55,754 nucleotides of DNA from Candidatus Omnitrophota bacterium (GCA_023247215.1 JAHFGX010000003.1:1-55754), one strand, 5' to 3'; counted from the stretch's first letter, positions 35,908 to 49,413 are shown. Notes: a model not told the origin generated them from the letters alone. Made by a program: numbers and translations.

Positions 35908-36915
35908 ATGTCGTTGGTCAGCGTCATTGCGCTCAATTGGAATCGGAAGGAGTTGCTTCGCGAGTGTCTTGAGTCGCTCGAGCGTCAAACGTTTCGGGAT
36001 CTCGAGGTCATCGTTGTGGATAATGGGTCAACCGATGGCTCCGTCGAGTTGGTACGGCAGCGCTTTGCCTGGACGCGGCTCGTGTCGCTTCCGCACAACT
36101 GCGGGTTTTCTGGCGGGAACAATATCGGGATCCGTCATGCCACGGGCACCTATATCGCCCTGTTGAGCAACGATGTGGTGGCATCTCCTGGGTGGCTCAC
36201 GGCCCTCGTCTCCACGATTGAGAAGTATCCGGAGGTTGGGTTCTGTGCGTCAAGGATCCTCTTCTATGATCAGCCGGAGCTTCTGAACAGTACTGGGATT
36301 CTCTATTTTCCAACGGGGGAGGCAATTGATCGCGGGTGGATGCAAATGGATGGGCCTCAGTTTAGTCAACCTGATTACCCAATCGGGGCCTGTGCCGCCG
36401 CCGCCCTCTATCGGCGCGCGATGCTGGAGGAGATTGGTCTGTTTGATGAGGAGTTTTCACCTGCCTACTACGAAGACGTGGACTTAAGCCTTCGCGCCCA
36501 GCTCCGGGGCTATCGTTGTGCGTATGTACCCGCGGCGGTCGTCCACCATCGCTTTGCCTCCACCATGGGGTACCGATCGCCTGAGCATGTCTACTTATGC
36601 GAACGCAATCGCTGGTATGCCCTCATCAAGAACGTCCCATTGCGGACCCTCATCAAATACGGACGGGTGATCGTAACCATCGCCAGACGGCGGCGCGTTG
36701 ATCACGTTCGTGCAGGGGAAGGGAGACCATTTGTGTCGGGACAACTGGCCGCGTTGCGCAAGCTTCCTCTCATGATGAGGAAGCGACGAGAAATCCAGCG
36801 GCGTCGCACCATCTCCGCCCGAGAGTTTGAAGCGTTACTCACCGTTCAACCTCAACCACTGCCTTCTCAAGCGCGCGTTCCAGGTTCTGGCGGGCCTCAG
36901 CCGAATCAGGCTTGA
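35908..36915 (+). CDS. Glycosyltransferase family 2
   Basis: VIALNWN, VDNGSTDGS, NCGFSGGNN, YYEDVDLSLR; alternative TTG start at 35890. Confidence 0.9.
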   Translation: MSLVSVIALNWNRKELLRECLESLERQTFRDLEVIVVDNGSTDGSVELVRQRFAWTRLVSLPHNCGFSGGNNIGIRHATGTYIALLSNDVVASPGWLTALVSTIEKYPEVGFCASRILFYDQPELLNSTGILYFPTGEAIDRGWMQMDGPQFSQPDYPIGACAAAALYRRAMLEEIGLFDEEFSPAYYEDVDLSLRAQLRGYRCAYVPAAVVHHRFASTMGYRSPEHVYLCERNRWYALIKNVPLRTLIKYGRVIVTIARRRRVDHVRAGEGRPFVSGQLAALRKLPLMMRKRREIQRRRTISAREFEALLTVQPQPLPSQARVPGSGGPQPNQA

Positions 36916-38479
36916 GCCGGACGGCTTCGGAGAACTGCGTGGCGGCTTCTACGAAGCGGTGCTGCTCTGCCAGGAGGACGCCGAGGTTGTTGTGGGCGTT
37001 CGCCAAGTCAGGCTGAAGCCTGAGCGTCTCGGTGTAGTGTCTCATGGCTTCTTGGGTATTTCCTTGCAGCCCAAAGACCATCGCCAGGTTGTAGTACGGT
37101 TCGGGGGCCTCAGGGGAGAGCTGAATGGCGTAGGTCAGGTGGGCCACGGCCTCATCGAGTCTGCGCTCTCGAGCCAGCGCCTTCGCCAGGTTGATATGAG
37201 CGCGCGGGTTGTTAGGGCGCTTGGCCACCGTATCGCTCCAAATGGAAAGATTGCTGTGATAATCAGCGTTTCGAAGAGCCGTGGCCAATCCTAGCGCGGC
37301 CACGCTGCCGACGACTAGAGCCGCTGACAGCGCGTGCCGTCGGCGAGGGTGGCGAGGCAAGAAACGCATAGAGAGCTCATACATGCCCAGGACGATTCCC
37401 GTGAGAACCGCAGCGAGGGGTAGGTACATTCGATATTCAGAGATCAGATCCGCGAGGGGGATAACGCTGGACGTGGGGGCCAAGATCAGGAAGAACCAAA
37501 CCCCCAAGAAACTGAGCGGCCGGTGACGCCGCCATCCCCACGCCGTTAACAGCAACGCGCTGCCAACCAACGAAGCGGGAAGCGCAATCTCTCTCAAGCT
37601 TCTCGCCGCCGGCCAGACGTAATCGAAGCAGAGGGGGTGCGGCCAGAGGGCCAGGCGAACATAGTGCACGAGAATGCCAGGCTGGGTCATGGCGTACGAC
37701 AGCGGCGTAAGACCAGGGATGCCAAATCCTGCCGAAGGATTCGCCATGGGGTGGATCTGCCGCAGGAGCAGAGGCGGGAGACTGCAGGTCACGACCAAGC
37801 CAAGGTAGAGCGTTCCACGATGGCGGAGTGCCTCCATGGTTGATCGGGCCAGGAAGCAACGGTCATACAGCAGCACCATCAGCGGGGCGGTGATCATGAC
37901 GGGTTTGCTCCCCATGCCGAGTGCGCATGAGACGACGGCCGCCGCATACCATCCCCAGCGGTAGGTGGCACCGCTGCCTCGCAAGACGCAATACAGGGTC
38001 AGGAGGTAGAAGAGCCCCATAAGCGACTCCGCCCGTTGCGTGAGGTAGGTCACGCTCTGGGTCTGGAGGGGGTGGGCCACCCAGAGCAACGCCACCGCCA
38101 ACGCGAGCCACGGAGCCGCGTGTCCGTAGCGGGCCCGCAGGCGCTCGCTCAGGAATGTCCGTCGGACGAGGCCAAAGAGCGCCAGGGCCGTCAGGACATG
38201 GATCACCAGGTTGACGACGTGGTATCCCCACACGTTGAGGCCGCCGAGGGCGTCATTGAAGGCGAACGACAGCTCCACCGTCGGCCGATGCGTGCCAGTC
38301 AGGAGCCACCCCATCGGCCAGGGGTGGCGGACATTGGGATTGTCGCGGATGACATGGTAGTCATCGAAGATGAACGGACCGGAGAAGCTGTTGTGGTACG
38401 CGGCGAGGCCGGCGATGATGATGGCCCATCCCATCTCGCGAAGCGCGGCGCGTTTCCGCTGATGACCAGCCGCTTGCAT
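36839..38479 (-). CDS. TMTC-like multi-pass membrane glycosyltransferase with C-terminal TPRs
   Basis: FIFDD loop after TM1, HRP, YHVVNLVIH, HPLQTQSVTY, SEYRMYLP, RNADY, then about 3 TPRs. Confidence 0.75.
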   Translation of the reverse strand: MQAAGHQRKRAALREMGWAIIIAGLAAYHNSFSGPFIFDDYHVIRDNPNVRHPWPMGWLLTGTHRPTVELSFAFNDALGGLNVWGYHVVNLVIHVLTALALFGLVRRTFLSERLRARYGHAAPWLALAVALLWVAHPLQTQSVTYLTQRAESLMGLFYLLTLYCVLRGSGATYRWGWYAAAVVSCALGMGSKPVMITAPLMVLLYDRCFLARSTMEALRHRGTLYLGLVVTCSLPPLLLRQIHPMANPSAGFGIPGLTPLSYAMTQPGILVHYVRLALWPHPLCFDYVWPAARSLREIALPASLVGSALLLTAWGWRRHRPLSFLGVWFFLILAPTSSVIPLADLISEYRMYLPLAAVLTGIVLGMYELSMRFLPRHPRRRHALSAALVVGSVAALGLATALRNADYHSNLSIWSDTVAKRPNNPRAHINLAKALARERRLDEAVAHLTYAIQLSPEAPEPYYNLAMVFGLQGNTQEAMRHYTETLRLQPDLANAHNNLGVLLAEQHRFVEAATQFSEAVRLKPDSAEARQNLERALEKAVVEVER

Positions 38480-38486
38480 GGGGGCT

Positions 38487-38492
38487 AGTATA
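38487..38492 (-). promoter_or_regulatory. -10 box of the TMTC-like gene (probably leaderless)
   Basis: Minus-strand TATACT 7 nt before the ATG; no Shine-Dalgarno. Confidence 0.55.
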
Positions 38493-38522
38493 CATGAACC
38501 GAACTCAAACGGGCATCAATGG

Positions 38523-38552
38523 TTGACAATCCCGCGCCGGCTCAGTTATACT
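38523..38552 (+). promoter_or_regulatory. Sigma70 promoter of the type IV filament operon
   Basis: TTGACA (38523-38528), 18-nt spacer, TATACT (38547-38552). Confidence 0.75.
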
Positions 38553-38594
38553 TTTTATTGTCAAAACTTAAACGTTGTTAGTGTTGGCCATTCA

Positions 38595-38727
38595 ACTGGC
38601 GAAAAGGCTAACCTCAGCACGACAGGATGCTGGTCCCGCCCGCGGTGTGGCGTGGGGGTGGGATGCCGGAAGGCGGGGGCGCAAAGCTGCGGGTCTCTTG
38701 GGTAGACAGCCCAGCTACCGAACCAGT
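38595..38727 (+). ncRNA. c-di-GMP-I (GEMM) riboswitch aptamer with an insertion in P2
   Basis: P1 ACTGG/CCAGT; AAGGCTAACC; GCC-GGAA-GGC GNRA loop; GGCGCAAAGC junction; P3 GCTGCGGGTCT...AGACAGCCCAGC; TACCGAA. Confidence 0.85.
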
Positions 38728-38736
38728 GCACGAGAG

Positions 38737-38771
38737 ACAGCCGAGCTGCGCACCAGGAGCCGGCTGTTTTT
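38737..38771 (+). terminator. Riboswitch-linked intrinsic terminator
   Basis: ACAGCCG...CGGCTGT stem followed by a T run, between the aptamer and the first pilin gene. Confidence 0.65.
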
Positions 38772-38808
38772 GCCGTCAAGGCAGGCAGAGGGAGGATGAC
38801 GACGTGAG

Positions 38809-39138
38809 ATGAGGCGCACAGGAGAACGGGGCATCGCGTTGGGGGTGGTCATTATTACCGCGGTCGTATTCTCGGTCGCGGCATTTGCGATTTTGACCTT
38901 GTCCATGGGTGGGGCGCAGCAAGCCGGATCATACGCCCGGCGGCTGAAGGCCCGCTACGCAGCCGAGGCGGGGCTGGTGTGGGCGACACAGCGCTTATGG
39001 GGGAACCCAACCTGGACGTCCTCAGCGGGCACGGATCTGGCCGTGGGCGGCATGAACGTGGACGTCACTCTGTCCGCGTGTCCGGCCCCGCCGGCCTCGT
39101 GCGACAACCGGCAACTGCAGGCGAAGGTGACGTATTGA
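38809..39138 (+). CDS. PilX/GspK-like minor pilin
   Basis: ERG-IALGVV class III signal without Glu+5; ARYAAEAG motif; GGAGG Shine-Dalgarno. Confidence 0.75.
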   Translation: MRRTGERGIALGVVIITAVVFSVAAFAILTLSMGGAQQAGSYARRLKARYAAEAGLVWATQRLWGNPTWTSSAGTDLAVGGMNVDVTLSACPAPPASCDNRQLQAKVTY

Positions 39139-39139
39139 G

Positions 39140-39565
39140 ATGGGGAGCTGCGTTCGCGGGTTTACCCTGATGGAGCTGCTGATCGTCGTGGTGCTGGTCG
39201 GCATTTTGGCTGCCGTCGGATATCCTGCGATGACCAAGGCGATGGAGCGAGCCTACTGGCGCGCGGCGCAGGATGTGCTCAAGACGATTTATGCGGGGGA
39301 GCGGACCTACTTTTTTGCGAATAACGCCTACTATAATGTGGATGAATCGGTTGCCGGCATGACGGAGTGGCGGAAAATCTACACGGATGATCCAAATCTT
39401 GGCTCTATTCCGGTCAAGTATTGCGTGACGGCTGCCGCGGCCACCACCTTTACCGCGTGGGCCTGCCGGAGTTCGACGGCTTGCAGTGCGGGATGCGGAG
39501 CAGAGAAGGGGATCTCCATCAACGAGGTCCGCACGATTGATACCAGCGATTGGCCAATGCCATGA
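39140..39565 (+). CDS. Type IV minor pilin (PilE-like)
   Basis: RG-FTLMELLIVVVLVGILAA prepilin motif; Cys-rich C-terminus. Confidence 0.88.
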   Translation: MGSCVRGFTLMELLIVVVLVGILAAVGYPAMTKAMERAYWRAAQDVLKTIYAGERTYFFANNAYYNVDESVAGMTEWRKIYTDDPNLGSIPVKYCVTAAAATTFTAWACRSSTACSAGCGAEKGISINEVRTIDTSDWPMP

Positions 39566-39576
39566 GGGGGGACGGG

Positions 39577-39996
39577 ATGAGACAGGTGCAGCGAGGAATT
39601 ACCTTGATTGAAATCCTGGTGGCGGCGGTGATCGCCGCCGTGGTCGTCGGGGGCACGATGACGGCGTTCCTCAGTGCCACCAAAGTGTCCAAGGTCTCTT
39701 CCGAAGAGGTGGGGAGTGCGGCGTACGCCCAGCAAACGATCGAGCGGTTTCGAAATAAAATCGCTTGCCGCCAGAGCACGGAACTCGCCACCGACACGTG
39801 GTTTGACAGCGCCTGCGCTCCGGCGGCGCCTTCGGGGTTGCAAACCGACGGCGATATCAGCGGCTCCGGAATCCCAGGGGCCACGCGTCAGTATCAGGTG
39901 GTCGCGATGGATTGCAACGGGGATAGCGATGCACTCGATGGCATTGACGATTGCTTGCAGATGACTTCCACGGTCCACTGGACGCCGGCCCAATGA
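39577..39996 (+). CDS. PilV/GspI-like minor pilin
   Basis: RG-ITLIEILVA; alternative ATG at 39562 overlapping the upstream stop. Confidence 0.82.
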   Translation: MRQVQRGITLIEILVAAVIAAVVVGGTMTAFLSATKVSKVSSEEVGSAAYAQQTIERFRNKIACRQSTELATDTWFDSACAPAAPSGLQTDGDISGSGIPGATRQYQVVAMDCNGDSDALDGIDDCLQMTSTVHWTPAQ

Positions 39997-40658
39997 CCCC
40001 CCGACACCTGATGCCAACCCACCCCCGCTTCTCAGACCGCGCGGGGTTGTCGCTCCTGGAGTTGTTGATTGCCGGGACCTTAGGGCTGGTGGTCATTCTC
40101 GCACTCAGCCAAACCGACGTGAGCCGGGTGCGGCTGGGCGACCGGATCAGTGAAGCCGTCTTCCGCCATGCCGATGCGCGCAGCGCCATCGGGCACGTGG
40201 TAAAGCGGCTGGAAGCCGCGGATCGCGTCATCTTGCTGGATGCCAGCAATGCCGCCTGCCAGTCGAGCTGCGTCTCCGTGCAACTTCGGATCCCTCCGAC
40301 TGATCCAACGCAGCTGGACACTGCGGCCAGTTATCAGTGGGTGCAGTATAAGCGGGATGCGACCAGCAACGAGCTTCGATATTACAGCCCCGCCTCCTCC
40401 TGTGCCATCGCGCTGAGCTTCAAGGATGTGACCGGTTTCACGCTCAGCTACGAGAACCAGAGCCCCGCACCGCCTGGTGGGGAACCGATGGGAGTCAGCG
40501 ACAGCAATCTGGTGCAAGTGAGCCTGGTTGCGACTGATCCGAAGACAGGCGACACGACGACCTTTCCAGCTTCGGTGACGATTCGGGGGGCTGGGTATAC
40601 CAATGTATCCAGCGGGTTGTCGGAAGCGGGTCCGCAGCCTCCGGCGCCGTGTTCGTAA
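39993..40658 (+). CDS. PilW/GspJ-like minor pilin
   Basis: AG-LSLLELLIA; ATGA overlap with the upstream stop. Confidence 0.8.
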   Translation: MTPRHLMPTHPRFSDRAGLSLLELLIAGTLGLVVILALSQTDVSRVRLGDRISEAVFRHADARSAIGHVVKRLEAADRVILLDASNAACQSSCVSVQLRIPPTDPTQLDTAASYQWVQYKRDATSNELRYYSPASSCAIALSFKDVTGFTLSYENQSPAPPGGEPMGVSDSNLVQVSLVATDPKTGDTTTFPASVTIRGAGYTNVSSGLSEAGPQPPAPCS

Positions 40659-40692
40659 CGCGACGATGAGATCAGCCTAAGGATATCTAGCC

Positions 40693-42369
40693 ATGGCGCG
40701 GCAGGGTGTCAGCTTGGTGATCAGGCCTGGAACGGTGGAAGTCATCCAGGCCGTCCAAGGCCTCCAGGGGATTCGCGTGACCCACGCGACCCGCGTGTCG
40801 GTGAAGGGATCTGACGATGCGCACATGGTGGAGGCCATCAGCACCGCCTTGGATCTGGCCCATGTCAAGACGCGAAGCGGGATTGGCGTCTGCCTGGCTG
40901 CGCAGGATGTCCTCCTCCGGTTCTTTACCATCCCGCTCCTGCCGAAACCGGAGTGGACCAATGCCATCCAGTTTGAAGCGCGCAAATATGTACCGTTCAA
41001 AACATCTGACTTGATTTGGTGTTATCAAGCGGTCGAGCAGCGGGCGGCCAGTCAATTGGCGGTGGTGTTCACGGCCATCCGCAAGGATGCGTTTGAGCGG
41101 CTGCAGGGGTGGCTCAGCCAAGCGGACGTTCAGGCGACCTTCATCGAAGGGCAGAGCTCCAGCTTGGCGCGGGCGGTTGCGAATGTCCAATCAGCGCGTT
41201 CCGCCGAAGTTGTTGCAGCCATTGATGTGGATGAGGCGGCTAGCGTCGCGCATGTGATCATCCTCAAGGGCGATTTGCTCTATCTGGCGCGCGACATTAA
41301 TTTGACAGCCCGGGCCGGGGGCGAGCCAGCGTTGATGGAGCCCTCGCCGGAGGCGGCTGCCCCCACGGTGGGAGAAGGAGCGGCAAGTTTTGACCAGGGA
41401 TCGGAGACAGAACGTGCGCCGGAGACGGCCTCCTCCAACGAAGACCATCGAGTGGAGCGGCTGCTGGGAGAGATCCGACTGTCCCTTGATTTCTTTGCGC
41501 GGGAGCATCCCGGCTTGGCATTATCTCGCGTGGTCCTGTTCGGGGATGCGCATACCGTGCAGCCCTGGAGTGTCTGGCTAAGCGAGCAGTTGCATTGCCC
41601 GGTTGAGGTCGGCGCGCTCCCCCTGGCAACGCCGCGCGGCCAATCCATGTCATTGGAGTATGCCTCTGCCTTAGGGACCATGCTGCGGCAGTTTAAGCCC
41701 GCGCCCACCCAATGCAACTTCTTGGTGTCAGCAAAATCAGTGGCTCCTCGCGTGACCGTGACGTTAAGCCGCGGCCTCAACCCGCAAGAGGCTCGGGTGA
41801 TCCTCAAAGCCATGACGAAGCCGCTGGCGATTCAGAGTGTTGTAGCCGCCATTGGGCTGGGTGTCCTCTGGTACGTCGTCCGGCAGAATGTGGCGACGGC
41901 GCACGCGCAGTTGGCGGCGGCCAAACAGCAACAACATGAGATGAAGTGGAAATTGGATGCTCGGAGCCAAGAGGAATTGGCGGCGCTCCAGCAACAAGCC
42001 CAGCAGCGGATCGGCGTCTTGAGGGGTCTGGTTGATGACCGGGTGATTGTCACCGAAAAACTGGACGCCCTCGCGCGCGCCTTGCCGGATGGCATTTGGT
42101 TGGAGGGATTCCGCTACGACAATCGTTTTCTGGATCAGACCAGAACCGAGACCTCGTTGACCATCCGGGGCGCATGTTTTCTGCCGGAAGAAAAGAGCAC
42201 GGAGTTGTCAGTTATTGGAGAGTTCACGAGCCGCGTCCGGCGCGATCCGAGGTTCTTCAACGGATTCACCAGCGCTCAGTTGGGAGAAATTTCCGTCAAG
42301 GAAGACAATCCGCGCTATACGTATCGAACGTTTAAGCTGAACTGCAGCAGCTCAGGGAAGCGACTCTAA
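40693..42369 (+). CDS. PilM-PilN fusion (GspL-like architecture)
   Basis: PilM-like AIQFEARKYVPF and EIRLSLDFF...VVLFG, one TM segment, then PilN-like KLDALARALPDGIWL...LTIRG. Confidence 0.75.
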   Translation: MARQGVSLVIRPGTVEVIQAVQGLQGIRVTHATRVSVKGSDDAHMVEAISTALDLAHVKTRSGIGVCLAAQDVLLRFFTIPLLPKPEWTNAIQFEARKYVPFKTSDLIWCYQAVEQRAASQLAVVFTAIRKDAFERLQGWLSQADVQATFIEGQSSSLARAVANVQSARSAEVVAAIDVDEAASVAHVIILKGDLLYLARDINLTARAGGEPALMEPSPEAAAPTVGEGAASFDQGSETERAPETASSNEDHRVERLLGEIRLSLDFFAREHPGLALSRVVLFGDAHTVQPWSVWLSEQLHCPVEVGALPLATPRGQSMSLEYASALGTMLRQFKPAPTQCNFLVSAKSVAPRVTVTLSRGLNPQEARVILKAMTKPLAIQSVVAAIGLGVLWYVVRQNVATAHAQLAAAKQQQHEMKWKLDARSQEELAALQQQAQQRIGVLRGLVDDRVIVTEKLDALARALPDGIWLEGFRYDNRFLDQTRTETSLTIRGACFLPEEKSTELSVIGEFTSRVRRDPRFFNGFTSAQLGEISVKEDNPRYTYRTFKLNCSSSGKRL

Positions 42370-42385
42370 GGATGCTCACACCTAC

Positions 42386-42898
42386 ATGAACCCGGCGTTG
42401 ATTTCCGGCATCATTGTGCTTGCATTGGCCGCACGGGTAGGATACGTTAATATCTATCTCTCAGGGCAAGAGGAGGTTCGGCACGTTCGTGAAGAGCAGC
42501 ATCGGCTGGAGGAGTTTCAAAACTTGCGGCTGCAAGTGGCCTCGGCTCTCGACCGAGCAGAGCATCTTCGCACAAAATTTGGCCAGAAAGCCGAACCAGA
42601 TGGGCTAATGCAAGAAGTGGACCGATTAGCCCAGAAGGTAGGCGTTCAGTTGGGCAGAATCGGGCCAGAACAAACGCGGGAAGCCAGCGGGTTCCTGTAT
42701 CTGGCCATTTCCTTGGAGGTGACCTGCACGTATCACGAATTGGGCCGCTTTCTGAGCGAGATCGAAAGCTCTGACACCTTCTTTATCCGGGTGGATGAGC
42801 TGGATGTGTCCCGGATCGTCGATCCCCAGGGCTTGGCGGCGACCAAGCTGGTGCTTAGTACGCTGTATGTGCCGCCGTTACTCGAGCCGCAGGGTTGA
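42386..42898 (+). CDS. PilO/GspM-like alignment protein
   Basis: N-terminal TM, coiled coil, TYHELGRFLSEIES. Confidence 0.78.
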   Translation: MNPALISGIIVLALAARVGYVNIYLSGQEEVRHVREEQHRLEEFQNLRLQVASALDRAEHLRTKFGQKAEPDGLMQEVDRLAQKVGVQLGRIGPEQTREASGFLYLAISLEVTCTYHELGRFLSEIESSDTFFIRVDELDVSRIVDPQGLAATKLVLSTLYVPPLLEPQG

Positions 42899-42900
42899 GC

Positions 42901-43545
42901 ATGGACCCGCAGCAAAAGGCGAAGTTGCAGAAGGTTGCCATGGTGCCGTTGGTTGGCGTGTTCGCCGTCGCGCTGTTGAATTCGCTTCGGAGCGCCGGCC
43001 TGCTGAGCAGGCCGCCCGCCGCTTCCCTCACCGCTGCGCCCGTCGTATCTGCGCCCACCGCGCCTGCCCCCACCGCGTCACGAACGCCTGCGCTGGAGAA
43101 AACGTCCGGGAAAGCCTCCGGGCCGCCCGCCGCGGCTGCCGCGAAGGTCGACGGCGATGCGGCGCGCATTCCCTATACGGCGGAAGCTGATGGGATCCGC
43201 GATCCTTTTGTGGATCTCCTGCCTTCCGACGCGCCGGTCGTCGCCGAAGTCCAGGCCCCTGCGCCCACTCCCGTGGTCTGGCCCACCGTGGTTCTTCAAG
43301 GCATTATCTGGGAAGCGAAGGCCCCTCACGTCATTATTGATGGCCAAATCTACCGTACAGGAGACACGGTGCAGGGCATGCGGGTTGTTTCTATTACTCG
43401 AACCGGAGTGACCGTGGAAATGCAAGGATCCAGGACCCAACTCATGATGTCCAACTCACAACCCCAGATGGCGTCTCCACAAGGGCAGGCGACCGGGCTG
43501 GCGTCGCCTTATCCGCCGTCTCGATTTCCCGGAGGTGAACGATGA
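42901..43545 (+). CDS. PilP/GspB-like protein
   Basis: N-terminal TM, Pro/Ala linker, RDPF, LQGIIW...IIDGQIYRTGD; alternative TTG start at 42895. Confidence 0.65.
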   Translation: MDPQQKAKLQKVAMVPLVGVFAVALLNSLRSAGLLSRPPAASLTAAPVVSAPTAPAPTASRTPALEKTSGKASGPPAAAAAKVDGDAARIPYTAEADGIRDPFVDLLPSDAPVVAEVQAPAPTPVVWPTVVLQGIIWEAKAPHVIIDGQIYRTGDTVQGMRVVSITRTGVTVEMQGSRTQLMMSNSQPQMASPQGQATGLASPYPPSRFPGGER

Positions 43546-45248
43546 GGTTGCGCGTCTGGTCAATGGCAGTCGCGACTGCCCTGGTGATCGTTGGAGGAGA
43601 AGCGGCCTACTCGGATTCTGATTCGGCGGCGCCGGCGCAAGGTGAAGAGCAGCCGCACGCGAGCATCACGGTTTCGACCCCGGCTTCGACCTCATCGGAT
43701 GCGTCTTCGAAATCGGAGTCTGCTTCGGAAGAAACCGTGCGTCTGTCCATGAACTTCCAGGACGTTGCGCTGAAAGACGTGTTGAAGGCGTTTTCCCAAC
43801 AAACCGGCATCAATTTAATTGCTAGCGAAGAGGTCGAGGACCGAAAAATTACGCTCTACTTGGAGGATGTCACCGCACTAGATGCACTGGATCAAATCCT
43901 CCGGGTTTCGAATCTCACCTATGAGCGCCCCGCCGGGAGCCAAATTTATGTCGTCAAGCCGAAGCCGGAAGGCGCGGAGGCTGGGGTTGTCGCCACGATT
44001 ACCCGTGTCTACCGGATGAAATATGCCCGGGTCTCCAACTCCCGCTTGGCGCAGCAAGCCAATTCAACACTGAGCGCCTTGGGGAGCGGGGGTGGGGGCA
44101 GCGGAGGGAGTTCCGGAGAATCGTCCTCTTCATCTTCATCCGGTTCATCCGGCGGCTCCAGTTCAAGCTCAAGCTCAGGGGGCGGCGGTGAGGGAGGCGG
44201 CGGGGAAGGGATTGATACGGTGATTGGAAAGCTGCTGACGGAAGATGGGAAGGTGATGGTGGACGGCCGAACGAACAGCTTGATCGTCACCGATGTTCCC
44301 ACCAATTTTCCGCGCGTCGAGGCCGCTATTGCCAGCTTGGACGTGAAAACCTCCCAGCTTCTCATCGAGGTGGAGCTCATCGAAACGTCGCTCTCCAAGC
44401 TCAAGGATTTAGGGATCGAATGGGGAACCGGTTCGGAAGGCAATATGCTCAAATTCATTCCCGGCCAGAAGTCCACGCAGTTTCCGTTTGTGTTTGTGCG
44501 GGAACAGTCGCAAACATTTCTTTCGGCCCAGAGCGGATTGACGAGCGCCACCAAGCCAGGGCAAATCGCGCTGGGGACGGTGGATGCCTCGCAGATGACG
44601 GCGATCCTCCAGGCCATTCAGAGCGACTCGGACACCAGGATTCTGGCGCGGCCGAAGGTGCTGACCTTGGACAACGAAAGCGCCGTGATTCGCATGACGA
44701 CGAACCAGGCTATCGGCTTTCTGACTACCAATCAGGCCACCACCGGGACCACCTCCGCTGCCCCGGAGCGGGCGCCGACCGGCGTGCTCCTCGTGGTGAC
44801 GCCGCAGATCAACCAGGACGGCTATGTGACAATGCTGGTCGAGCCATCGGTGACCAAGGCCACGACGTCTCAAGTCACCCCGCCGTCCGCCGTCGGCGGC
44901 ACCATTCGTGATACCAAGACTCGCAGCGCCCGGGCGCTTGTTCGGGTGCGCAATGCGGAAACCCTGGTCCTGGGGGGGCTGATTGACCGCACCCAAGAGC
45001 ATGTGGTGCAGCGAGTGCCCTTCCTCTCCGATATCCCGCTGATCGGCGGGGCATTTAAGGATACTGAAATCACGGATACCGAAAGCGAGCTGATTGTGTT
45101 TATCACGCCCAGAATTTTGTCGGAGCGCTATGGCGAGTGGATGGCCTCCACCGCCATACCGATGGCGGCGCGGGAGCAGGCCCCGACAGCTTCACGCCAA
45201 GAACTCATCGAACAAACGCTGAATCGCTTGGAGCAATCTCAGTTTTAG
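43542..45248 (+). CDS. Outer-membrane secretin (PilQ/GspD family)
   Basis: Signal peptide, LSMNFQDVALKDVL, DGRTNSLIV, ARPKVLTLDN, VTPQIN, VLGGLI, VPFLSDIPLIG, ELIVFITPRI. Confidence 0.92.
   Translation: MRLRVWSMAVATALVIVGGEAAYSDSDSAAPAQGEEQPHASITVSTPASTSSDASSKSESASEETVRLSMNFQDVALKDVLKAFSQQTGINLIASEEVEDRKITLYLEDVTALDALDQILRVSNLTYERPAGSQIYVVKPKPEGAEAGVVATITRVYRMKYARVSNSRLAQQANSTLSALGSGGGGSGGSSGESSSSSSSGSSGGSSSSSSSGGGGEGGGGEGIDTVIGKLLTEDGKVMVDGRTNSLIVTDVPTNFPRVEAAIASLDVKTSQLLIEVELIETSLSKLKDLGIEWGTGSEGNMLKFIPGQKSTQFPFVFVREQSQTFLSAQSGLTSATKPGQIALGTVDASQMTAILQAIQSDSDTRILARPKVLTLDNESAVIRMTTNQAIGFLTTNQATTGTTSAAPERAPTGVLLVVTPQINQDGYVTMLVEPSVTKATTSQVTPPSAVGGTIRDTKTRSARALVRVRNAETLVLGGLIDRTQEHVVQRVPFLSDIPLIGGAFKDTEITDTESELIVFITPRILSERYGEWMASTAIPMAAREQAPTASRQELIEQTLNRLEQSQF
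44080..44210 (+). repeat. Gly/Ser low-complexity coding tract inside the secretin
   Basis: Encodes GSGGGGSGGSSGESSSSSSSGSSGGSSSSSSSGGGGEGGGGEG; boundaries approximate. Confidence 0.8.
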
Positions 45249-49340: not shown

Positions 49341-49413
49341 GGGGCAGTAGCTCAGCTGGGAGAGCGCGACAATCGCACTGTCGAGGCCCGGGGTTCGATC
49401 CCCCGCTGCTCCA
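49341..49413 (+). tRNA. tRNA-Ala (anticodon CGC), CCA not encoded
   Basis: Acceptor stem GGGGCAG/CTGCTCC with G3-U70, D-stem GCTC/GAGC, anticodon stem CGACA/TGTCG with loop ATCGCAC, T-loop TTCGATC. Confidence 0.95.

Follow-up and report, generated by a model that had tools for sequence, protein, structure and literature searches.

A c-di-GMP-I-type aptamer with a repeat-like insert in its first hairpin and a duplicated 3' half in the leader of an Omnitrophota pilus-type operon

The locus studied here lies in a 55,754-nucleotide (nt) stretch of DNA from Candidatus Omnitrophota bacterium (GCA_023247215.1, JAHFGX010000003.1:1-55754), which was analysed at its full length and is called the window hereafter. 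It consists of a leader holding an aptamer of the cyclic di-GMP class I type (c-di-GMP-I, also GEMM-I), placed in front of a type IV pilus / type II secretion-like operon; features are on the plus strand unless stated otherwise. The operon (38809..45248) codes for a PilX_N-like protein, two N_methyl pseudopilins, an unassigned open reading frame (ORF), PilM/PilN-like, PilO and T2SSB-like proteins, and a secretin. An initial annotation of the stretch had read the locus as a c-di-GMP switch gating pilus transcription, and the surroundings agree with it. A strong sigma-70-type promoter, TTGACA-18 nt-TATACT, is found at 38523..38552 (11/12 matches; 1 site against 0.2 expected), and the gene 5' of the leader, coding for a PMT_2/TPR protein, is divergent (36839-38479, minus strand). 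Three runs of a single groundwater study contain the window stretch, two of them DNA and the third a metatranscriptome. A single 173-nt contig from the RNA library (metatranscriptome run X4) covers 38562..38734 at a depth of 22.8 with zero differences, and it starts 10 nt past the -10 hexamer. The rest of 38300-39600 is bare in the RNA run, bar fragments roughly 30 nt long at 39161-39191, each of which has one mismatch and is probably from a pilin of another organism; contigs of this kind prove neither transcript ends nor absence, and the bare parts of the window do not equal silence. Such cover would fit a leader RNA present in larger amounts than the message of the operon, and it does not settle where the 3' end lies.

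The whole aptamer spans 38595-38727, and its first hairpin is split by a 50-nt insert. According to the available text of Weinberg et al. (2007; PMC1950547), the GEMM motif is defined by a 2-base-pair (bp) and a 6-bp stem, a 3-nt internal loop, a GNRA cap and an AAA linker. We found all of these in the window, together with a second hairpin and P1, and every GEMM-I hallmark named in the initial annotation is in place with the conserved core kept. The 5' strand of P1 (ACUGG plus CG, 38595..38601), whose ACUGGCG also occurs in orthologous leaders, pairs with 38719-38727 without bad pairs. It is followed by J1/2, an A-run with G38606 (38602-38606, placed by alignment to the consensus of Rfam family RF03167), by the lower 2-bp stem of P2 (GC, 38607-38608 with 38681-38682), and by the internal loop, in which UAA (38609-38611) stands opposite GGC (38678-38680). 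The base of upper P2 is formed by CCU (38612-38614) with GGG (38675-38677). The insert (38615-38664) comes next and contains two hairpins: P2a (38615-38632; CAGCA, an 8-nt loop and UGCUG), predicted by ViennaRNA and aligned as row L140 of alignment A3 described below, and a linker G with P2b (38633-38664; GUCCCGCCC/GGGUGGGAU), again from ViennaRNA. P2c, the old tip of P2 (38665-38674), reads GCC-GGAA-GGC, with the GNRA tetraloop at 38668-38671. The returning strand (38675..38685) carries the GGG of the P2 base, the GGC of the internal loop, the GC of the 2-bp stem and the AAA linker (38683-38685). The P3 hairpin, formed with the first of two copies of the aptamer 3' half, occupies 38686-38715 in the RF03167 alignment (38686-89 paired with 38712-15, 38691-92 with 38710-11, and 38693-96 with 38704-07). 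J3/1 with C38718 (unpaired AC, 38717-18) and the 3' strand of P1 complete the aptamer (38716..38727). There are zero non-canonical pairs among those specified, and ViennaRNA predicts the three P2 hairpins unaided. The 6-bp stem is present as 3 + 3 (38612-14/38675-77 and 38665-67/38672-74, with the insert between), P2c and the P2 base forming one coaxial helix. The two-hairpin insert in the 5' strand of P2 turns this hairpin into a four-way junction with its GNRA tip kept, as had been proposed.

The letters at the ligand-contact positions, G38606, A38683 and C38718, are the canonical c-di-GMP-I letters in the columns of the RF03167 alignment. The type example of this riboswitch class is Vc2 of Vibrio cholerae, and we take the three columns, in numbering as in role, to be G20, A47 and C92 of Vc2. 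An A in place of the G at position 20 marks the riboswitches for 3',3'-cyclic GMP-AMP (cGAMP), or GEMM-Ib. The window has G at 38606, in line with the earlier reading of G and C at the c-di-GMP-selecting positions, and nothing in its letters suggests that the aptamer would prefer cGAMP. The selectivity that follows from the position-20 change is given as a general statement in the available text of Sherlock et al. (2022; PMC9481103).

It had further been anticipated that covariance models would score this aptamer poorly, and they do. At gathering cut-offs, a tRNA (49341-49413) is the sole Rfam match in the window, and no match is found at the aptamer. The whole-genome search with RF01051, the c-di-GMP-I family, gave 22.7 bits for 38662-38722, below the cut-off of 35, and the one with RF03167 gave 24.4 bits for the window aptamer. 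In an Rfam scan of 38450-38900 under an E-value threshold, 38598-38723 aligned to RF03167 over all 80 model positions (32.5 bits, E 6.7e-6); the single local insertion is 60 nt long and falls precisely on the tip of the first hairpin. RF03167 (c-di-GMP-I-GGC), which shares a clan with RF01051, gives the best Rfam alignment, and the window is not a member of it: we rejected this variant at 32.5 bits versus a cut-off of 59, with CGCAAA in the window versus CGCGAA in the family. CGCAAA is what the canonical RF01051 matches of relatives carry. We ascribe the RF01051 shortfall to the insert, because insert-less orthologous leaders reach 65-76 bits. A covariance model of the junction subclass described below, R1, built from 15 members, gives 49.8 bits for the window (E about 5e-11) and 31.7 bits or less for the canonical aptamers of the same genome.

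Orthologous leaders were collected via the second gene of the operon, which was matched in 33 of 35 genomes of the family, and 30 loci were fetched. A regular expression recognised the GEMM core in 19 of them, 16 with a plain 15-nt P2 tip and three with a long one (65 nt in the window, 63 nt in G029 and 90 nt in G009); the other 11 loci gave no match to the expression, some through contig ends. Across 17 leaders, the two flanks of the insert are identical to those of the window at 15-19 of 20 and 28-46 of 53 positions, the row of G024 being poorly aligned. In 14 of the 17 the flanks lie 10-14 nt apart, that is, the leaders are insert-less. Seven plain orthologues (G003:C15, G005:C74, G008:C70, G015:C7, G021:C15, G022:C9 and G027:C18) are those that score 65-76 bits with RF01051, and we used the plain orthologues as natural insert-deleted counterparts of the window. 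The relatives closest by pseudopilin (G003, G012 and G033) are plain, and on this ground we read the window insert as a probable gain.

The junction is not confined to this leader. C-di-GMP-I riboswitches are dense in these bacteria: the genome of the window (G000, 1.46 Mb) has 10 RF01051 matches above the cut-off, relatives have up to 29 matches each, and 60 of 61 genomes (G000-G060) were matched. In G000, C36:38906-39030 carries the same kind of insert, and a third junction copy (C40:10117-10234) was found by R1 alone. A search for the long-P2 pattern hit 25 places in 13 of the 35 family genomes, which by inspection comprise 18 junction-type riboswitches and seven chance matches; the latter (L049, L053, L054, L057, L060, L061 and L067) were dropped. 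In the class, 73 of 401 genomes match the pattern, chance hits and other types included. Long RF01051 matches in relatives were also considered as further junction cases and rejected, since the extra length lies in P3 in 20 of the 20 fetched. R1 gave about 60 full-length matches of at least 40 bits in 26 of the 35 family genomes and, at E <= 1e-7, matched 18 of 151 evenly sampled genomes of the phylum, including families outside the class of the window.

An alignment of 57 members (A3) provides the covariation check on homologs of the insert that the initial annotation had envisaged. In A3, 94.1% of cells are paired versus 71.9% in shuffles and 37-51% with slid partners, and double-sided changes occur at 21 of 24 pairs, including 15 of the 15 pairs of the two inserted stems; these figures weigh less than they appear to, since A3 was fitted to the model structure, which inflates the pairing counts, and its members are related, so that the shuffle controls overstate significance. 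Another alignment, A2, mixed canonical and antisense matches and was set aside for such counts. The tip loop is a GNRA tetraloop in 57 of 57 subclass members, and the strand between this loop and the internal loop measures 6 nt in 52 of 57 (five were not parsed), as it does in 38 of 41 canonical aptamers. Because this 6-nt register is kept, the two parts of the old helix can stack to the canonical length, and the retention of both tip and strand argues for aptamer function having been retained in the subclass. The break in the 6-bp helix falls after 2, 3 or 5 bp depending on the member (2+4, 3+3 or 5+1), a variability that fits repeated insertions better than one designed domain.

Several other peculiarities of GEMM-I leaders emerged in the course of these searches. 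A sub-group of A3 reads GGCACAC or GCCACAC for GGCAAAC, with GUCGC or CGGAAAGC opposite, the differences including C-G in place of G-C in the 2-bp stem (rows L106, L107, L109-L113, L117, L118, L120, L121 and L126-L128); it may represent a pocket-adjacent variant. L135 (G024:C32:8031-8092) and L138 (G020:C19:4139-4212) are GEMM-like leaders with hairpin repeats between P2 and the AAA linker and a degenerate GGCAAAC, and may be decayed or heavily decorated riboswitches. L099 (G143:C1) and L100 (G085:C26) have a normal P2, two small extra hairpins and then a UCGCAAAGC junction. Many riboswitches have long P3 extensions filled by heptamer-periodic repeats (P3 loops of L051, L056 and L065). The long-P2 junction was also sought outside the phylum, and a contig scan gave 100 stretches. 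Among the 80 listed there are 33 nested or tandem aptamers, 32 three-hairpin folds, 12 two-hairpin folds and three others. The three-hairpin stretches come from records titled Omnitrophota, 'Planctomycetia/Planctomycetales', Elusimicrobia (4), Ignavibacteria (1), Actinomycetota (2) and others; record titles may differ from GTDB names, and we make no claim on phyla beyond Omnitrophota. The 33 nested or interleaved stretches of the 80 listed, sorted by a crude rule, are mostly from records titled Bipolaricaulota, Acetothermia and Thermotogae, and in them a second GEMM-I 5' half begins inside the first P3 (for example L171, L173, L175, L177, L179, L199, L202, L220 and L243-L249).

We found that R1 also matches places without a GEMM core, where model positions of about 20-81 alone are covered, often on both strands. 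These places reveal a dispersed repeat of the form CCGCCA-N7-UGGCGG, two letters, CCGCCA-N7-UGGCGG. The pair pattern occurs in 12 of the 35 family genomes, in very uneven numbers that range from 1 to 31 sites per carrier (31 sites in G024, 19 in G022, five in G002, four in G027 and two in G000, among others); none was found in the other 23, and the reversed control gave 0. Both copies of the pattern in the genome of the window lie inside genes. One (G000:C20:16353-16409, L296) is in frame in the gene for adenylosuccinate synthetase (purA), where it accounts for 13 extra residues relative to PDB entry 4m0g, and the other (G000:C25:2939-2997, L297) is in frame in a gene for a ResB-like protein; both encode SATMLGGSA..GGG. 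Of the G024 copies, one is contained in an ORF with a match to the complete catalytic domain of glutamine synthetase (glnA) and another in an RHS-repeat ORF, these genes being named on their Pfam match only, as ORF spans are uninformative where several frames are open. Of six frames tested in G024 (five copies), two fall within a recognised coding domain; Pfam also matched L286, with a match that begins downstream of the element. Intergenic copies are set in tandem repeats of 7-8 nt at the G024 loci L280, L282, L286, L289, L290 and L292, and these tandem repeats are similar to the heptamer-periodic ones of the P3 extensions mentioned above. The family of the insert is REP-like (after the repetitive extragenic palindromic sequences) in its many dispersed copies, their uneven number and their in-frame presence inside unrelated genes. 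As for the window itself, the core of P2b (38632-38653) shares 19 of its 22 positions with a dispersed G024 copy, a score reached by 0 of 300 shuffles. Judged by this resemblance, the insert is a worn copy of the repeat family. P2a by itself is too worn for a family judgement and resembles the CAGCC/GGCUG sub-type of other riboswitches. The suggestion of the initial annotation that the insert could be a second input is not supported: the insert belongs to a dispersed repeat found in frame in purA and in ResB-like, glnA and RHS genes, and 14 of 17 leaders do without it.

Downstream of the aptamer, the leader reveals a second unusual trait. All 17 leaders have two copies of the aptamer 3' half (the 3' part of P3 plus the 3' strand of P1) before a hairpin and a U-tract. 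In the window, the canonical aptamer, or fold A1, is completed by copy 1 (38704-38727). The 5' half of this aptamer can alternatively pair with copy 2 (38731-38757), which gives fold A2 with a longer P3 and a 6-bp P1. A terminator had been expected 3' of the aptamer, and a terminator-like hairpin with five U is indeed found at 38738-38771, 38738-38747 pairing with 38758-38766 with one bulge and the U-tract covering 38767-38771. We called it by hand pairing and by its energy of -14.4 kcal/mol; a simple terminator scan missed it because of its 10-nt loop and the bulge in its stem. The sequence CAGCCGAGCU of copy 2 doubles as the 5' arm of this hairpin, and it is through copy 2, we infer, that ligand binding would act on the terminator. 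Across the 17 leaders, covariation links the loop nucleotides of A1 to those immediately 5' of copy 2. The helix extension specific to A2 gains 1.88 bp from pairs within a genome versus 0.94 bp from pairs across genomes (4 of 10000 permutations; the leaders are related), a difference that supports A2 as a putative selected structure. The layout with two 3' halves is seen in other riboswitches of the clade as well (L040-L042, L047, L055 and L071).

The nearest-neighbour energies of the competing folds are -43.5 kcal/mol for A1, -48.3 kcal/mol for A2 and -57.9 kcal/mol for A1 plus terminator. They put A2 ahead until the 3' arm of the terminator has been made, and A1 with the terminator ahead from then on. 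Copy 1 is canonical in all 17 leaders, and in the window it is the only canonical one: copy 2 of the window is without one C of CCG and cannot give both the unpaired C and the two inner pairs of P1. For these two reasons we would place the action of the ligand on A1.

Altogether, we propose that the window may carry a c-di-GMP-I aptamer of a working type in which the insert is a tolerated passenger repeat and in which c-di-GMP turns the pilus operon off; we give this reading about an even chance. A lineage-specific, REP-like hairpin pair would have invaded the 5' strand of the upper 6-bp helix of P2. As each inserted hairpin would fold alone, the 3 + 3 bp could still stack and present the GNRA loop, so that the aptamer would tolerate the four-way junction, and the insert would be a passenger, or at most a structural stabiliser, rather than a second sensor. 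Control would be exerted by transcription attenuation through two mutually exclusive folds of one 5' half. C-di-GMP would lock A1, leaving copy 2 free, the terminator would form and the operon would be off; when the ligand is absent, A2 would displace copy 1 and the polymerase would read through.

A number of observations, set out in this and the next paragraph, weigh against this proposal. The RNA contig stops at 38734, short of the U-tract. The fold energy of 38590-38775 is ordinary (z = -0.87; 44 of 200 shuffles are at least as stable), and the case rests on homology and covariation for this reason. At full length, the best structure with A1 enforced reaches -75.0 kcal/mol and that with A2 enforced -67.3 kcal/mol, so that A1 with the terminator is favoured and ligand-free read-through would need a kinetic window no longer than about 10 nt. 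In addition, both 3' halves of the orthologues look canonical, and the ligand may equally stabilise A2 and turn the operon on. The opposite logic, in which c-di-GMP would stabilise A2 or act mainly there and hide the 5' arm of the terminator, draws on the same facts: copy 2 is canonical in the 16 other orthologues, where the terminator overlaps its P1 strand in the classical ON layout, and A2 is the more stable fold before the 3' arm of the terminator exists. A further point in its favour is that the available text of PMC1950547 counts 78 of 322 GEMM instances with terminators that compete with the second hairpin. We allow this logic a substantial minority share of the probability and rank it lower for the window, where copy 2 has lost one C of CCG and where copy 1, canonical in 17 of 17 leaders, is made first.

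Other readings concern the insert and the aptamer rather than the direction of the switch. The junction is kept across several families, always in one orientation (the loop reading), a pattern that co-option would explain equally well. The two hairpins could have been recruited as a module, either as a docking site for a protein (for example of the Y1 HUH type) or as a folding or kinetic element; in both cases it would tune or gate the riboswitch, in the sense of the second input raised by the initial annotation. The subclass extends over several families and classes, the 15 inserted-stem pairs all change on both sides, the inserted stems (CCGCCA/UGGCGG) are more conserved in sequence than structure demands, and Y1_Tnp proteins are three of ten first ORFs behind junction-type riboswitches. 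We nevertheless regard co-option as possible but rather unlikely, because the same module is found in coding sequences as well as in intergenic DNA, is lacking from 14 of the 17 orthologous leaders and has drifted from the consensus in both window hairpins, and because the 6-bp helix is not always broken at the same place. A more specific form of this idea, in which the Y1 (HUH) transposase-like proteins encoded behind riboswitches of the same subtype would recognise the hairpin pair as a portable module of RNA or DNA, so that c-di-GMP signalling would be coupled to the spread or function of the repeat, strikes us as improbable; if it were true, module-bearing riboswitches would gain a second, protein-borne input. 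Y1_Tnp is present in 25 of the 35 genomes with no clear relation to repeat numbers, a further point that tells against us, and no copy of the repeat was found in the flanks of the Y1_Tnp gene of G000. It is also conceivable that the insert and the changes in the internal loop have disabled the aptamer, leaving a constitutive attenuator or a decaying riboswitch. The window aptamer falls below the gathering cut-offs of both RF01051 and RF03167, its hairpins are worn, and its highly conserved internal loop departs from the consensus, reading U instead of A at 38609 and GGC instead of GAC at 38678-38680. Such a loss appears very improbable in view of the GNRA tip and the 6-bp register, which are kept together with all other conserved positions, of the GNRA loop in all 57 subclass members, of the GGCUAAC shared by member L075, and of the presence of the leader in an RNA library. 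The reading that we prefer remains that of a working-type aptamer with a passenger insert and an operon turned off by c-di-GMP.

The genes behind other c-di-GMP-I riboswitches of these genomes deserve mention in their own right. Y1_Tnp (IS200-like HUH) proteins of about 370-490 amino acids are encoded directly behind such riboswitches at L079 (458-1588), L083 (453-1559) and L085 (188-1339, minus strand), and also in G009:C4, G034:C108 and G008:C37; an RF01051 match lies 340-500 nt upstream of at least three long Y1_Tnp ORFs in the family. Single-domain response regulators make up three of ten first genes behind junction-type riboswitches (L048, 1700-2065; L051, 1900-2253; and L055, 1800-2168, the last being the G000:C36 paralogue).

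If our proposal is right, the helix of a riboswitch aptamer can absorb a selfish palindromic repeat and yet stay selected for its tertiary contact. Standard annotation will miss many c-di-GMP riboswitches in Omnitrophota, a phylum very rich in such switches. The compact design, in which one 5' half would choose between two 3' halves, offers a handle on co-transcriptional strand exchange, and orthologues with and without the insert provide ready-made controls for the effect of a peripheral helix on the ligand response. The findings bear chiefly on how riboswitches are annotated, on RNA architecture and on the biology of selfish repeats. What is added here to the initial annotation is the link between insert and repeat, the insert-less orthologues, the preserved 6-bp register and the platform with two 3' halves. 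The claim that the architecture is new agrees with our searches: in the literature searched we found no branched first hairpin in this class, no description of a layout with one 5' half and two 3' halves, and no paper on a REP-like element inside any riboswitch aptamer.

Besides the GGC variant, three known systems are close to what we describe. The dispersed repeat resembles the REPs, their bacterial interspersed mosaic elements (BIMEs) and the Rickettsia palindromic elements (RPEs) in that all are short GC-rich palindromes, often dimers, with uneven copy numbers, found between genes as well as in frame, the in-frame copies coding for some 13-20 residues. Intragenic REPs, often dimers, encode 20-30 residues according to the available text of Di Nocera et al. 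(2013; PMC3733652), and in R. bellii the available text of PMC1458961 reports 53 RPEs in protein genes and one in the gene for transfer-messenger RNA; the latter case indicates that a structured RNA can host a palindromic element. Unlike in the REP/BIME systems, the host in the window is the helix of a riboswitch aptamer, and the word 'riboswitch' is absent from the available text of PMC3733652. In addition, no GTAG or CGTC tag was seen in the repeat, in contrast to REPs, and the Y1_Tnp counts of the genomes give no clear link to a RAYT-type transposase flanked by copies of it. The canonical c-di-GMP-I riboswitches (RF01051), as described in the available text of PMC1950547, share with the window P1, the layout of the first hairpin, the AAA linker, the second hairpin, the 5' position with a terminator, and the pilus genes (pilM, pilO and pilQ) in the regulon. 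The window departs from them in that its 6-bp stem is broken by 50 nt that make two hairpins, its score lies under the cut-off, and a second copy of the aptamer 3' half serves in its expression platform. Finally, tandem c-di-GMP-I riboswitches string whole aptamers together; the available text of Sherlock et al. (2022; PMC9481103) counts 347 doublets and 12 triplets of them. Like them, the leader of the window has more than one aptamer-like unit, which in tandems goes with sharper or more complex control; unlike them, it shares one 5' half between two alternative 3' halves.

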